A program made the position numbers and the translations under genes. Of a stretch of DNA of 21,616 nucleotides, positions 10,599 to 20,613 are shown one piece after another. The notes under the pieces were generated by a model. That model was not told the origin of the DNA and searched no databases. It saw nothing but the letters and a program-made list of their open reading frames with translations. Each line of letters opens with the position of its first letter. Position 1 is the first letter of the stretch. This DNA is from Candidatus Woesearchaeota archaeon (lineage in GTDB: Archaea > Nanobdellota > Nanobdellia > Woesearchaeales > UBA10216): NCBI GenBank assembly GCA_016180085.1, contig JACPBX010000029.1, positions 1-21,616 on the forward strand, written 5' to 3'.

Positions 10599-10696
10599 TA
10601 TAAACCTTTAAAAAGCGTTCCGCAGTTGTTTCTCGATTGACCCTTTTCGGGAGAAGGAATCCGTTTTTGGATAAACCCTTTTTCTAAAAGGGTTTT

Positions 10697-10829
10697 GCCC
10701 CGTTCGTTCAGTCCGGTCAAGGACACGGCCCTTTCGCGTGACCTTTTACTCGCTTGCGAGCGAGCAAAAGCTCAACCAAAAACGTCACGAGGTAAGGCCG
10801 GGACCCGGGTTCAAATCCCGGACGGGGCA
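10697..10829 (+). tRNA. tRNA-Glu(TTC) with a 58-nt canonical 37/38 intron (10737-10794)
   Basis: Acceptor GCCCCGT/ACGGGGC+A; anticodon stem CGGCC/GGCCG; BHB CTTT/GAGG plus GTGAC/GTCAC; T-arm CCGGG-TTCAAAT-CCCGG. Confidence 0.95.
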
Positions 10830-10846
10830 CCTAATCCTTATACCGA

Positions 10847-10892
10847 TTATAACCCTACAAAATGCAAAGTTTTAAATATTTGTAGGGTTACC
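10847..10892 (+). promoter_or_regulatory. Fic operon promoter: TATA box (10871-10878) flanked by a 12-bp inverted repeat; first copy of a degenerate direct repeat
   Basis: TAACCCTACAAA (10850-10861) / TTTGTAGGGTTA (10879-10890) around TTTAAATA. Confidence 0.65.
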
Positions 10893-10900
10893 TTCTTTAT

Positions 10901-11884
10901 ATGGTGTTTGTCAGCAAGAAGGGCATTAAGGGCAAGATGAGGTATTACCTAGAGAAGTCAGTGCGGCTTCCTGGCGGCGCTGTGAAGAAGTTCTCAGTTT
11001 ATCTCAAGGATTATGAGCCTAAAAGCGGATTAAGAGGTCTTGATAGCTATGTTGCATTGCTTAATGCAAAAGCGCGTGCAACTGTGATAAACCATGTCGC
11101 AGAGTTCTACACGAAATCGAGCATTTTTAGCAACGGAGTCATTAAAGGGCTTGAAGAGGTAAAACTGGCTTACAACGGGCTCAGAAAGAAAATAAGCAAG
11201 AAACAGCTTCAGGATGTTATAGATAGATTTACTGTCAATTTCACGTATGAGTCAAACGCTATTGAGGGTAATTCATTAACTCTTAAAGATGTGGCAATTG
11301 TCCTGCATGAGAAAAAGGCTATAGAAGGAAAGGACCTCAGGGAAATTTATGAGGCTTTGAACACGCGGGAGGCAATGAAGCTCATATTCAACAACAAGCT
11401 TAAGATAAGTGAACATGACATAATTAAATTGCACAAAATCCTTGTACGGAACACAGATGTTGCTTTTGGCTACAAAAAGCTGCCGAATTTCCTCTTAGGG
11501 CGTGACACGCAGACTACTCCGCCTGAAAAGGTGGAAGAGGAGATGCGTGAGCTGATAACCTGGTATCATGAAAATGAAAGAATGCACCCGCTCGAAAGGG
11601 CATCAATTTTCCATGGCAGGTTCGAGACTATACACCCCTTTGAAGATGGAAATGGCAGGGTAGGCAGGCTGCTGATTAACATAATGCTGATGGACAACGG
11701 CTACCCGCCACTTATCATAAGAAAGACACACAGGATTGCTTATCTGGCCGGTTTAGAGGCGTTTGACCATGGTTACAGCGACAAGCTGAAGAGACTCCTT
11801 ATTGACAAATACAAAACAACTTACAAAAAATTCTTTGAAGTATATGTCCAGTATTTGAATTTTGAGAAAAAACAAGGGTGGTAA
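10901..11884 (+). CDS. Fic family protein (class II, with intramolecular inhibitory motif)
   Basis: Canonical HPFEDGNGRVGR motif; N-terminal (S/T)xxxE(G/N) motif SNAIEGN. Confidence 0.95.
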   Translation: MVFVSKKGIKGKMRYYLEKSVRLPGGAVKKFSVYLKDYEPKSGLRGLDSYVALLNAKARATVINHVAEFYTKSSIFSNGVIKGLEEVKLAYNGLRKKISKKQLQDVIDRFTVNFTYESNAIEGNSLTLKDVAIVLHEKKAIEGKDLREIYEALNTREAMKLIFNNKLKISEHDIIKLHKILVRNTDVAFGYKKLPNFLLGRDTQTTPPEKVEEEMRELITWYHENERMHPLERASIFHGRFETIHPFEDGNGRVGRLLINIMLMDNGYPPLIIRKTHRIAYLAGLEAFDHGYSDKLKRLLIDKYKTTYKKFFEVYVQYLNFEKKQGW

Positions 11885-12275
11885 CGTGCTACACAGTCAG
11901 AAGGAAAAAATGGCAAACAAAATGAAGGAAGGCGCTCTTTATTGTGCAAAATGCGACTCTGAGATGAGACTGGCGCTGCTTCCAAGTTACGAGTACCTAG
12001 AAGGTCACCCTCTTAGCAATGTGCAGGCTTACAAATGCCCTAAATGCGGCAACGTGTTCTTCACTGAGGAACAAGCAGCACGCATGAAGCAAAGGACAAA
12101 TGCGCTTATTGAAAGCACCTTCGGCTTCCACAGAAAAATAACCGTTACAGGCAGGAGTCTGGCAGTAACAATTCCACAGGAGCTGGCCAGCCATATGAAC
12201 CTTAGCAAAGGCGTAACCGTAAAAATAATCCCATCAACAGGCTGGCTCACGATAAGGAAAGTAAAGGCATTATAA
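11862..12275 (+). CDS. YgiT/MqsA-type zinc ribbon fused to an AbrB/MazE/SpoVT DNA-binding domain (putative antitoxin/regulator)
   Basis: CAKC...CPKC; C-terminal RKITVTGRSLAVTIPQELASHMNLSKG.V; real start probably GTG 11886 or ATG 11910. Confidence 0.8.
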   Translation: MRKNKGGNVLHSQKEKMANKMKEGALYCAKCDSEMRLALLPSYEYLEGHPLSNVQAYKCPKCGNVFFTEEQAARMKQRTNALIESTFGFHRKITVTGRSLAVTIPQELASHMNLSKGVTVKIIPSTGWLTIRKVKAL

Positions 12276-12312
12276 TTCTACAAAATCGAAATGTTTGAAT
12301 ATTAGGGTTACC
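12270..12312 (+). repeat. Second copy of the degenerate direct repeat flanking the Fic module
   Basis: TTATAAttCTACAAAATcgAAAtGTTTgAATATTAGGGTTACC aligns with 10847-10892. Confidence 0.75.
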
Positions 12313-12370
12313 AGACTAACATTATTTCTTGGTAATCTTTATAAGCTAAACGTAACGTTCTTCCCTTTAT

Positions 12371-12500
12371 GCCGGGAGTGGACGATCCGGTGCGTCCGTC
12401 CGCCTCGAATGACCCACGGAGACAACATGTCGACTGTGGCTCAACCAAAAAGTGAAAGCGGATTGCGAAAGCTATCGGGGTTCAAATCCCTGTCCCGGCG
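12371..12500 (+). tRNA. tRNA-Ser(CGA) with a 47-nt 37/38 intron (12410-12456) and atypical D-arm
   Basis: Acceptor GCCGGGA/TCCCGGC+G; anticodon stem TCCGC/GCGGA with loop CT-CGA-A; variable arm with GAAA loop; T-arm CGGGG-TTCAAAT-CCCTG; BHB central helix is imperfect. Confidence 0.85.
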
Positions 12501-12632
12501 TTTTCTTCTTGGTTTAAAGTACGACCGGTTTTAGCGGCGGAATATATCAGCCATCTTGGCTAAAGCCGGGTTATAAAAAATAAATGTTATATTTACAAAA
12601 GAGTTAAATAATAAATCTCATTACAAGCTATA

Positions 12633-13310
12633 ATGAACAAACAAACTCAATTTAATCGAATAAAAGAAAGCCAGTGCCCTCTGGACAACAGAGTTCTTGT
12701 CGCTGTTGATGAGTCATATTCCGATGCGCGGCCCGGCTTGACTTACATGGCGGTCGTTTGCTCGCTTCCAAGACCTGATTTAAATCCCGCTTTGTTGTCA
12801 CACAGGCGTGATTCCCAACACCGCATTACACCCGATCTTGCGTGGAGAATTTTTGTTAATCCTGCCGCGTATGACTTGATTGTGGTTGGCATGGCTGTTA
12901 AGTCTGGTACAAAAAAGGGAGAACAGGTCAAGTTTTGGTCTCACGGTATTAGATACGGCATAGAACTTGTTGAAATGAAGTTGGAAGAGCTCAATGTTCC
13001 CGGTAGTATCGACCAGGTTTTTGTGGACGGTGAAAAGCCAAAATATTTCAGGGATGAGCAATGGAATGAGCAATTTGGATCATTACGGCTTGCTTTTACA
13101 CCGAAAACCGGGGGGCGAAATGGATATAATCTTAACCTTGATTGCTGTGCTGCACGGTTGCTTGCCGTGGCTGATGGCCTTGCAGGACAAATTAGGTATA
13201 GCGTTGATGGTAGATGGCATCGGGATAAGGTTGTAGCAATAGTTGCGGCTCGCCATAGTCCCTTAGCACAGTATGCCCCTGCACTACCTGACTTTGAACT
13301 TAGAATTTAA
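12633..13310 (+). CDS. DUF3800-like (RNase H-fold) cassette protein
   Basis: N-terminal VAVDES, central VFVDG and C-terminal LLAVADGLAG match the DES...D...QxADxxA pattern of DUF3800; recognised by eye. Confidence 0.55.
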   Translation: MNKQTQFNRIKESQCPLDNRVLVAVDESYSDARPGLTYMAVVCSLPRPDLNPALLSHRRDSQHRITPDLAWRIFVNPAAYDLIVVGMAVKSGTKKGEQVKFWSHGIRYGIELVEMKLEELNVPGSIDQVFVDGEKPKYFRDEQWNEQFGSLRLAFTPKTGGRNGYNLNLDCCAARLLAVADGLAGQIRYSVDGRWHRDKVVAIVAARHSPLAQYAPALPDFELRI

Positions 13311-13388
13311 GCAGCAGAATCCAAGCAGGACATCAGCCTTTTGAATGGCGGTCAGATTGGGTGCGACGTCGCACTGCTCGTCCGCCGT

Positions 13389-13400
13389 CCTGTCCCGGCG
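13389..13400 (+). repeat. att-like copy of the tRNA-Ser(CGA) 3' end (CCTGTCCCGGCG)
   Basis: 12-bp exact match to 12489-12500. Confidence 0.88.
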
Positions 13401-13408
13401 CTTATAAT

Positions 13409-14659
13409 TCAGGCTATGCCTGCTAGCTCTTTTTGTTGCTGCCGCTGCTGTCTAACCGCCATTAGCTGCTCGTAAACTGCCAGGATTCTTGGCGCAACAA
13501 CGTCCCAGCTGAAGTTTTCAACAACAATCCTCCTGCCATTTTGCCCCATTCTGAGGCGCATCTCCTCATTGAGAACGAGCCTTTCAAGTGCTGCGGCAGT
13601 TGCTTCTATGTCCCTTGGCTGCACGAGGATACCTGCCTCTGCCACGAAGAATTCAGAATTCATGACCTCTTCCCCGTACTTGCGGAATCCGAGCAGCACG
13701 TCCCGTGGCCCTGGAATGTTTGTGGTGACAACGGGCTTTCCTGAAGCCATCGCCTCTGGAACCACAAAGCCGAAGCTTTCGCCGTCAGTGGGCGTTGCCG
13801 CGAATATGTGTGCAGTTGCGTAGTACCTTTGCAGCTCGATTGTGGGAACTCCGCCAACCAGCACTATGTCCTTGTTGTCAACTGCGCCCAGCAGTTGCCT
13901 TGTCATCGCGTCAGGCTCTCCTGGCCCGACAACCAGCAGCCTGGTGTTTGAGTATTTTGGATTCAAGTGCATCTGGCTGAAAGCAGAAACGAGGTAGTAA
14001 AGGCCTTTTCTCCTTTCATTATTGCCGAGCCTGCCCACGAAAAGGATGTTTACCTTGCCGTCAAGATATTTCTCTATGCCTCCAACTTTTGGGCTGAACC
14101 TTTCAGTGTCAATGCCGTTAGGTATGACTGTGTAATTCCCAGGGAGGTAGTGGTTGGCCTTTGCCTTTGCCGCCTCTGAGACTGCAAGCCTCACGTCAAC
14201 CTTTTGAATCAGCTTATCAATCCCAAAAAGCCTTGCAAGCATGCTATAGAACCAGGTAACAGGATTAGGCGAAGTGTTGGAGTGCGACGTTGTCACCAAC
14301 ACGGTTGATTCGGTGTTTACATACTTCGCCGCGAGGGGCCCGAGTATGGGCGCTTCAGGCGAATGGATGTGCACCACGTCAAAGTTGCCGTTTGACAGAA
14401 ACTCATGCAGCCTGCCCTTGTTCCAGAAGGAAAAAGTGAACCTGGAAACGGTTCCTATGCCTATAGGCAGTGGGACAGTCCTGCCCATGTTGACAAAGTC
14501 TACGCCCTTATGGTCCACGTAACAGTTTTCCCTTGAAGCTGGGGCCAGGACTGTAACGCTATGCCCGAGCCTCCTGGCGTGATGTGCAAACTGAAGAACA
14601 TGGTTCTGCACACCGCCGGGGTATGCTATGTCATACGGGCAAACAAGGGCTATTTTCAT
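13409..14659 (-). CDS. GT4 family glycosyltransferase (PimA-like)
   Basis: MKIALVCPY...PGGVQNHV, IPNGID, ILFVGRL...RKG, ESFGFVVPEAMASGKPVV. Confidence 0.92.
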   Translation of the reverse strand: MKIALVCPYDIAYPGGVQNHVLQFAHHARRLGHSVTVLAPASRENCYVDHKGVDFVNMGRTVPLPIGIGTVSRFTFSFWNKGRLHEFLSNGNFDVVHIHSPEAPILGPLAAKYVNTESTVLVTTSHSNTSPNPVTWFYSMLARLFGIDKLIQKVDVRLAVSEAAKAKANHYLPGNYTVIPNGIDTERFSPKVGGIEKYLDGKVNILFVGRLGNNERRKGLYYLVSAFSQMHLNPKYSNTRLLVVGPGEPDAMTRQLLGAVDNKDIVLVGGVPTIELQRYYATAHIFAATPTDGESFGFVVPEAMASGKPVVTTNIPGPRDVLLGFRKYGEEVMNSEFFVAEAGILVQPRDIEATAAALERLVLNEEMRLRMGQNGRRIVVENFSWDVVAPRILAVYEQLMAVRQQRQQQKELAGIA

Positions 14660-14772
14660 TCATCCACCGCTTAACCAGCAAAACAGCAACATTTTATAAA
14701 TATTTACAGTTAAACAGCCGCGGCAGCCTGATTTTCCCTATGCAAACGGTCTTTATGACGCGATAAGAATAG

Positions 14773-14962
14773 TGTCGGGGGCGAGACTTTCAAGCCTCTT
14801 TGCAACAGCTTTTTGGTTGAGCTTTTTGCTTGCAAAAAGGTCATTTGAACTCGCGACAATGGCGTCTCTCCGCCTTGTTAGAGGTAAGGTCATCGCTGCC
14901 TTCGCAGCTCAGAGCTCAAAACGTATGAGCGCCACATTCTAACCAGGCTGAATTACCCCGAC
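14773..14962 (-). tRNA. tRNA-Met(CAT), probably elongator, with two introns: 37/38 (14866-14923, 58 nt) and 59/60 (14787-14843, 57 nt)
   Basis: Acceptor GTCGGGG/CCCCGAC+A; D-arm ATTC/GAAT; anticodon stem TGGCG/CGCCA with CT-CAT-A; T-loop intron has a perfect BHB central helix TTCA/TGAA. Confidence 0.9.
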
Positions 14963-17183: not shown

Positions 17184-17429
17184 TGGTGGACCGGTCGGGA
17201 CTTTCATAGCCGTTTTCCCCCAGGGCTCCACGTCGTCGCAAGACGACGGGACCAGTCGAGTTTTCCTCGACTTGGTTTTTGCGAAGCGCACTGAGCAAAA
17301 AGGGCTGATTTGAACCCGAAGCCTTAGCGGATGCTTAAGCAATTGCCGAAGCCTCACCGCGGCCAGCGGCGCGTTAGTCTGGAGGGCTTACACCTAAGTA
17401 GGCCCCTTACCAGGTTTAACTACCGGCCC
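17184..17429 (-). tRNA. tRNA-Ala(GGC) with encoded CCA and three non-canonical introns: 21/22 (17377-17407), 43/44 (17325-17354), 59/60 (17201-17308)
   Basis: Acceptor GGGCCGG/CCGGTCC with G3:U70 and A73; anticodon stem CGCCG/CGGTG; three perfect BHB central helices (CTGG/CCAG, GCGG/CCGC, TTCA/TGAA). Confidence 0.92.
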
Positions 17430-20133: not shown

Positions 20134-20613
20134 TCATGGCTGCTGCAAAGGATTGCCATGCTGCCTCAGGTGCCTGGTTCTCGGGAATGGCGCGCCTGGG
20201 AATCCAGGAGGAGGCGTCCTTCTTACTTCTGATGAAAGCCTGGTGTGCTTTGCTATCTCCGGCAAATGCTCCCTGTGAAGGTCGAGAAGCGTAAGAAGCG
20301 AGTGCGCAACATCCTTGTTCTGCTGAAGAACTTTACCTGTTTGCTGGAGAATCTCCCTGTTTTGCTCAATGAGCTGCTTGTTGTAAATGGTAAGCTCGTC
20401 AAGCTTCATGAGCACCTGCTGTGTTGGTTCGGCCTTTATTTCGTCCTTTGCCTTTTCAAAAACATCAACTAAGGTCCTCACTACCATGATTAGCTCCTCA
20501 ACGCTGTCTTTCAGCGCCTCTTTCTCAGAAGCAGGCCTTGAGCTTGAGGGCCCAACAATACGTTCAACACTCATAATAGCACCTTTTTGATTGACCTTTT
20601 CTGAAAAGGTCAT
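20134..20613 (-). CDS. Hypothetical coiled-coil protein with Pro-rich tail
   Basis: Heptad-like segment KLDELTIYNKQLIEQNREILQQ; C-terminal PPPGFPGAPFP. Confidence 0.75.
   Translation of the reverse strand: MTFSEKVNQKGAIMSVERIVGPSSSRPASEKEALKDSVEELIMVVRTLVDVFEKAKDEIKAEPTQQVLMKLDELTIYNKQLIEQNREILQQTGKVLQQNKDVAHSLLTLLDLHREHLPEIAKHTRLSSEVRRTPPPGFPGAPFPRTRHLRQHGNPLQQP

Follow-up and report, generated by a model that had tools for sequence, protein, structure and literature searches.

A probable mobile hairpin repeat that occupies bulge-helix-bulge tRNA introns in a genus of Woesearchaeota

Three introns in different tRNA genes of a Candidatus Woesearchaeota archaeon (GenBank assembly GCA_016180085.1, contig JACPBX010000029.1) share an exact 13-nt motif, and we report here that this motif is the 3' end of a short hairpin repeat dispersed through the genome and the genus and, patchily, the order. 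Our best explanation, which we consider probable, is a non-autonomous mobile hairpin element, one lineage of which has adapted to tRNA introns and fills and creates introns of the bulge-helix-bulge (BHB) kind. The window analyzed is the entire 21.6-kb contig (C11); the genome (G000) comprises 1.0 Mb in 45 contigs and is 83% complete. The genus set consists of ten genomes (G000-G009).

Results

The exact 13-mer was found by sequence search three times in the window, at 10770-82(+), 12439-51(+), and 14810-22(-), compared with a chance expectation of about 6e-4 copies per window by simple arithmetic. A preliminary description of this DNA had assigned the copies to the introns of tRNA-Glu(UUC) at 37/38, tRNA-Ser(CGA) at 37/38, and tRNA-Met at 59/60, and our gene placements agree. 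Its observation that TGACC stands 5' of every copy is likewise borne out: in predicted folds TGACC and GCUCA can form a helix that spans a C.C mismatch, and the enclosed stems pair. The motif comprises the 3' arm (GCUCR) and the A-rich tail (ACCAAAAA) of a repeat whose full architecture reads YGACC, U-run, variable GC-rich hairpin, A-run, GCUCR, and ACC-A5, often followed by ACG. It identifies a subfamily that we term A-type, marked by the 5' arm YGACC, the C.C mismatch in the closing stem, the ACC tail, and a GC-rich inner hairpin that is flanked by a U-run on one side and an A-run on the other. The most abundant form of the family, termed B-type, consists of a perfect hairpin of 33 nt followed by the tail AUC-A5.

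Default ARAGORN found no tRNA in the window, and an Rfam search at gathering thresholds recovered neither a tRNA nor any other RNA family there. Because these finders are blind to the tRNAs of the window, genes were placed by manual reading and by a deletion scan, in which candidate introns were removed before ARAGORN was run. The genes and their A-type modules are as follows.

10697-10829, plus strand: tRNA-Glu(UUC) gene with a 58-nt 37/38 intron at 10737-10794
10739..10782, plus strand: A-type module in the tRNA-Glu intron, with TGACC, a U4/A4 stem, a GC-rich inner hairpin, and the 13-mer tail
12371-12500, plus strand: tRNA-Ser(CGA) gene with a 47-nt 37/38 intron at 12410-12456
12410..12451, plus strand: A-type module in the tRNA-Ser intron, with another inner hairpin and without U and A runs, filling the 47-nt intron
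14962-14773, minus strand: tRNA-Met gene with two introns, at 37/38 (14923-14866) and, in the T-loop, at 59/60 (14843-14787, 57 nt)
14810..14843, minus strand: A-type module at the 5' end of the 59/60 intron (intron 2) of tRNA-Met

The remainder of the tRNA-Met 59/60 intron provides an A-run-GG partner and a UGAA that pairs with the T-loop.

In most genus members, a relaxed motif pattern, with Y or R allowed at two positions, matched 5-15 times per genome; a reversed control matched 0-2 times. Of 75 matches in the genus collection, about 61 have the full architecture, and about 40 of these 61 structured copies are located within tRNA introns, without exception in sense orientation. Intron copies mostly begin 0-2 nt past the 5' splice site, and one tRNA holds two of them. 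Besides 37/38 and 59/60, the occupied intron positions include the D-loop (L006, L033) and the anticodon stem (L020, C35), and to the hosts seen in the window, Glu, Ser, and Met, the genus adds Leu, Gln, Thr, Pro, Lys, Asp, Val, Arg, and others. The other 21 or so structured copies are outside tRNAs; an Rfam search by E value of 20 loci with non-tRNA copies returned nothing relevant. Elsewhere in G000, structured copies occur in a two-intron tRNA-Leu(CAG) gene on C36, in intergenic DNA (C37:333-380), and, as a long three-hairpin version, beside a tRNA and outside tRNA genes (C3:26885-26973).

The wider family was counted with a looser degenerate end pattern, for which reversed-pattern controls gave 0-3 matches. 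Copy numbers were 35 in G000, 40 in G008, 83 in G005, 49 in G007, 96 in G001, 37 in G004, 26 in G009, 18 in G006, 8 in G003, and 3 in G002. A covariance model (R1, from alignment A1) built from 43 copies found matches in 21 of 121 families in the order, and 5-9 copies in several of them; the distribution across the order is thus patchy. Copy-rich genomes include G001, G005, G007, G038, G102, and G111. A search inside and outside tRNA introns, which the preliminary description had proposed, finds copies in both, in this genome and in the genus. The same description had located the motif nowhere outside introns. For the exact 13-mer within the window this stands, but for the family it does not, as the copies at 20583-20613(-) and 10663-10696(-) and those on C37 and C3 demonstrate. 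The refuting outcome that it had named, a generic repeat equally common in intergenic DNA, applies in half: the wider family is common outside tRNAs, whereas the subfamily with the exact motif is strongly enriched in introns.

Coincidence among A/T-rich introns or low-complexity sequence was given a negligible probability and is refuted by these controls. An exact 17-mer scan of all GTDB genomes was saturated with chance matches, and the 17-mer also occurs singly in unrelated bacteria and in viral contigs, as coincidence would predict; simple arithmetic gives an expectation of about 139 such matches in 596 Gb. However, three exact copies in 21.6 kb and counts of up to 96, against 0-3 in reversed-pattern controls, do not fit such an origin. 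Two scans of viral contigs returned almost solely unstructured chance matches, of which only 2 of 63 had the matching 5' arm, whereas the genus copies have it.

A few distant likenesses were seen. The complete A-type signature (CGACC-U5 ... A5-13-mer) is found downstream of a stop codon on a scaffold of the haloarchaeal isolate Halorussus ruber (L098:1215-1280) and occurs once in a viral contig of IMG/VR (L324). Ruminococcus/Clostridia metagenome-assembled genomes (L086/L103/L129) contain a multi-copy Ruminococcus repeat in which a perfect GAGC-U5/A5-GCUC hairpin is followed by the same 17-mer. These likenesses may reflect relatedness or convergence.

The two subfamilies differ in habitat. In G000 and G008 combined, 14 of 17 A-type copies lie in tRNA introns, always in sense orientation, against 2 of 44 B-type copies (G000, 8/10 and 2/24; G008, 6/7 and 0/20). 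Fisher's test gives p ~3e-9 for this split, a value that overstates the significance because the copies are interrelated. We regard the A-type as a lineage adapted to tRNA introns, which is part of the explanation that we hold to be probable.

B-type copies often adjoin tRNA ends or stop 2-12 nt short of a start codon. In G000, 7 of the 24 stop 2-12 nt upstream of the ATG that opens a long open reading frame (ORF) on the same strand, examples being window 20583-20613(-), C8:1739, C9:292, C5:6042, and C22:138798. The U5-N3-A5 center of these seven copies lies ~26-29 nt upstream of the start, like the TATA box of a leaderless archaeal mRNA, and the B-type element may carry or mimic a promoter. 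One could accordingly read the repeat as a non-mobile cis-regulatory DNA palindrome (promoter or TATA-like element, operator, or bidirectional terminator) that recurs under selection at many genes and whose presence in introns is incidental. The TATA-like geometry of those 7 of 24 copies is in keeping with this, as are the several copies that adjoin tRNA 3' ends, where the T-run could act as a terminator, and the position of the Halorussus copy after a stop codon. We nevertheless judge it quite improbable, since it leaves unexplained the sense-only A-type filling of tRNA introns at three or more positions, the range of 3 to 96 copies within one genus, and the filled versus empty orthologous sites described below; moreover, an internal promoter or T5 run in a tRNA gene has no obvious benefit.

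Comparison of orthologous tRNA genes revealed empty, minimally filled, and differently filled sites. The module is present in the tRNA-Glu(UUC) intron of all ten genus genomes. Outside the genus, this gene has no intron in G010, G015, G020, and G022, and a mini-intron of 12-21 nt in G017, G021, G023, and G040, which shares its 3' end (GAAGAA or GAAGCA before A38) with the genus introns. The tRNA-Ser(CGA) gene contains the module in eight genus genomes and is intron-less in G007; outside the genus it is intron-less or has mini-introns of 10-18 nt, again with the 3' end of the genus introns. In tRNA-Met, position 59/60 is uninterrupted in G002 and G003 of the genus and in G011 and G021 of other genera, is occupied by an A-type copy in G000 and G001, and in G005-G007 by a hairpin with another end type. 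Close relatives without the intron therefore exist for Met (G002, G003) and Ser (G007), as expected for gain after speciation, with polarity unrooted. According to our best reading of these alignments, the module appears to have entered older mini-introns at 37/38, and at 59/60 to have come with a short 3' segment that completes the BHB.

A composite case was seen in G008 (L300, C2:133414-134178, minus strand), where two copies share a tRNA-Leu intron: a sense A-type copy and, behind it, one of another subfamily in antisense orientation. The two tails, one A-rich and one U-rich, complement each other and would add a further long hairpin, and another copy adjoins the 3' end of the tRNA.

Folding of the precursors predicts a BHB or relaxed BHB at the exon-intron junctions, and all BHB folds given here are such predictions. 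The minimum-energy fold of the Glu precursor is a textbook hBHBh' with the central helix CUUU/GAGG and the inner helix GUGAC/GUCAC, which takes up the TGAC arm of the module. The Met 59/60 junction adopts a BHB-like fold in which a central helix UUCA/UGAA is flanked by 3-nt bulges and the inner helix, with G.U and A.C, is formed by the ACC and U-run of the module. For tRNA-Ser(CGA), only a relaxed BHB is predicted. In Glu and Met, the BHB-compatible fold is ~5 kcal/mol more stable than a fold in which the closing stem of the element is enforced. That the motif fold and the splicing fold exclude each other in these two introns, as proposed earlier, is correct, with the qualification that in Glu only the outer 3-5 bp conflict.

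The closing stem of the element covaries among homologues, and the BHB partner changes along with it, so that the covariation proposed as a check is present. Among 43 copies, the outermost closing pair is U-A in 27, C-G in 16, and unpaired in none; in a larger set it is U-A in 31 and C-G in 23, with no mixed case. Because the same inner-hairpin types occur with both U-A and C-G, the pair states do not simply mark two lineages. Across the orthologous Glu introns, the outer stem is UGA/UCA, CGA/UCG, GGA/UCC, UGA/UUG (a wobble; G002, G006), or CAA/UUG, and the downstream BHB partner shifts in step with the arm (GUCAC, GUCAU, GUUGUG, CGUG), while the rest of the intron is unalignable. One 5' arm is thus constrained by two mutually exclusive helices, which supports the core of the earlier observation of a possible switch. 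Throughout the family, the stem variant UUCUU/AAGAA is accompanied by the tail AAGAA in 12 of 12 cases across four end types, for example at C30:4503 and C32:2908 in G000 and in the tRNA-Glu intron of G004 (L198). Two explanations offer themselves: alternative folding, with the tail paired to the U-run, or templating of the tail by the stem.

The window contains three further members or relatives of the family.

20583..20613, minus strand: B-type family member outside tRNA genes, a perfect 31-nt hairpin followed by the tail AUC-A5
10663..10696, minus strand: degenerate antisense family copy, its end adjoining G1 of tRNA-Glu (E 0.02)
17201..17308, minus strand: 108-nt 59/60 intron of a fourth, multi-intron tRNA (~17433-17184), ending GCCC...GGGGGAAAAC

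The first of these, recovered by a 13-mer search with 2 mismatches, lies 9 nt upstream of the ATG of a 146-aa ORF on the same strand. The intron at 17201-17308(-) lacks the 13-mer and consists of a U5/A5 hairpin and two further hairpin modules, which recur in long versions of A- and B-type elements; its end type is the one that fills tRNA-Met 59/60 in G005-G007. The other intron of tRNA-Met, at 37/38 (14866-14923, minus strand), keeps its length and in part its sequence across the genus. It matches nothing in Rfam and, because it has GAUGA-like and CUGA-like boxes, may be a box C/D-type guide RNA.

Discussion

The preliminary description had left a choice between a functional intron-derived RNA or splicing switch and a tiny mobile element in tRNA introns. 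The evidence fits the second best, because genomes carry numerous copies, some of them outside tRNAs, because the distribution across the order is patchy, and because some orthologous sites are empty or differently filled. The first, to which we assign a low probability, holds that the hairpin and its ACC-A5 tail are selected as RNA and that free copies are by-products. The module might then be a switch with a timing or chaperone role in the folding of the BHB, or it might provide a site where a protein or another RNA binds the excised (circular) intron. This alternative would account well for several of our results: the coupled covariation of the closing stem and the exclusive BHB inner helix in orthologous Glu introns, with G.U intermediates; the conservation of the ends over ten species; the sense orientation of all intron-resident A-type copies; and the invariable match of AAGAA in tail and stem, which fits alternative pairing of U-run and tail. 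By contrast, orthologues do without the module (Ser in G007, Met in G002 and G003, Glu and Ser in sister genera), and in three species Met 59/60 holds an unrelated end type; such intron-less orthologues and substituted hairpin types speak against a function that is essential. Nor would a functional RNA be expected to show a patchy, multi-copy distribution across the order, with about one-third of A-type and nearly all B-type copies outside tRNAs and in both orientations, and the module has neither an Rfam family match nor C/D boxes. Two structural readings of the motif were rejected on inspection. A kink-turn (K-turn) or C/D reading fails for lack of GA.AG pairs and boxes. A tRNA-minihelix mimic (stem plus ACCA), raised because ACCA follows the 3' arm, is inconsistent with stems of ~10 to >17 bp and with the AUCA of the B-type tail.

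Several points weigh against a mobile element. Apart from the interrelatedness of the copies noted above, the comparison of filled and empty sites was not rooted on a species tree, which bears on the direction of change, gain or loss. No target-site duplication was found at Met 59/60 when filled and empty sites were compared, with at most 1 nt of ambiguity, and no consistent one emerged. In the ten orthologous Glu introns, the module ends are conserved and compensated while the rest has diverged beyond alignment, and a decaying selfish insert should not keep its ends, barring frequent gene conversion or re-invasion. No mobilizing enzyme was found in these metagenome-assembled genomes, which are 67-92% complete, in searches for Y1 transposase, reverse transcriptase, and TnpB, other transposase families not being searched. 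The Y1 transposase (PF01797) was not found in G000, G001, G007, G008, or G009; it is absent from most copy-rich genomes and present in G002, which is nearly copy-free. Mobilization of the IS200/IS605 or REP (repetitive extragenic palindromic) kind was therefore rejected, as Y1 does not co-occur with the repeats. Retro-mobility was rejected with reverse transcriptase in none of five genomes, and TnpB was rejected as the mover given its inconsistent presence, in only two of five (G001, G007).

If the repeat is nonetheless a mobile element, as we think probable, its history in tRNA genes might be as follows. The element would be copied at the DNA level by a trans-acting activity, and within a tRNA gene a copy would survive only where the pre-tRNA can still form a BHB. 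At 37/38, it would land in the loop of a pre-existing mini-intron, directly after the 5' splice site. At 59/60, a short 3' piece (A-run, GG, 2-nt spacer, UGAA, AG) would arrive alongside the element and pair with its ACC-U-run and with the UUCA of the T-loop, generating a new BHB. In the transcript, the 5' arm would quit the element hairpin and become the inner BHB strand, so that the splicing endonuclease could excise the element, and the C.C mismatch may ease opening of the hairpin. More tentatively, the A-type can be viewed as a portable intron cassette with a two-state RNA design, in which the 5' ACC-U-run has two alternative partners, the 3' arm of the element itself and an A-run-GG downstream.

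A single splicing endonuclease unit (EndA) is detectable in G000, at C40:45896-46156(-) (L191:1474-2067). It has 197 aa with N- and C-terminal domains and, judged by this arrangement, looks like an alpha4-type enzyme. In the literature (PMC5829648), 59/60, D-loop, and relaxed-BHB introns are assigned to (alpha-beta)2 or epsilon2 enzymes, yet such introns are present in G000 together with its apparent alpha4-type EndA. A hidden beta subunit was considered in the adjacent 172-aa ORF and discarded, as this ORF has no Pfam, BLASTP, or PDB similarity.

The closest precedent is provided by the transposed BHB introns of Thermoproteales. Similar introns occur there in different tRNAs and at different positions, and "transposition" was inferred with no agent identified (Fujishima et al. 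2010, via PMC4090602). The two systems share similar intron sequence across tRNA identities and at several positions, recent gain evident from comparison of close species, the need for a BHB at the junction, and a mechanism presumed to act at the DNA level. Unlike those introns, the shared part here is a defined hairpin-plus-tail module with free copies outside tRNA genes, it comes in intron-specialized and general subfamilies, its host belongs to DPANN (Woesearchaeota), and at 37/38 the insertion appears to be of the module alone, into an older mini-intron, and not of an entire intron. What is new here is the hairpin-plus-tail unit with free copies, the intron-specialized subfamily, and the DPANN host.

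Like miniature inverted-repeat transposable elements (MITEs) and REP/BIME (bacterial interspersed mosaic element) repeats, the element is short, non-coding, imperfectly palindromic, multi-copy, and patchy among relatives, with compensatory stem changes. It differs from both in its asymmetric A-rich 3' tail and its strong tie to tRNA genes and introns, from MITEs in that no target-site duplication was seen and no autonomous partner was found among the three enzyme types searched, and from REP/RAYT systems in that G000 and most copy-rich genomes have no Y1/RAYT protein. With the box C/D RNA of the archaeal tRNA-Trp intron it has in common a conserved structured element within an excised, possibly circularized BHB intron. 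In contrast to that RNA, the module contains no C box (RUGAUGA), D box (CUGA), K-turn, or Rfam match, is spread over several tRNAs, and is dispensable in orthologues.

These results bear on the failure of tRNA finders to detect most DPANN tRNAs, of which the default searches of this window are an example. They also bear on how archaeal tRNA introns arise. A 2026 census of tRNA introns in Asgard archaea reported repeated gains and left the route of arrival open (bioRxiv 10.64898/2026.10.13.758758). If the tentative cassette interpretation is true, insertion of the element beside a 4-nt complementary patch would yield a spliceable BHB intron, tRNA introns could arise de novo, as at T-loop position 59/60, beyond hitch-hiking in old ones, and intron gain in archaeal tRNA genes would have its first defined agent. 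Many intron bodies in this genus are copies of a recognizable repeat, which provides a concrete candidate for the origin and growth of archaeal tRNA introns, and the orthologous sites of this single genus, some empty, some filled, and some differently filled, constitute a testable system for intron gain.

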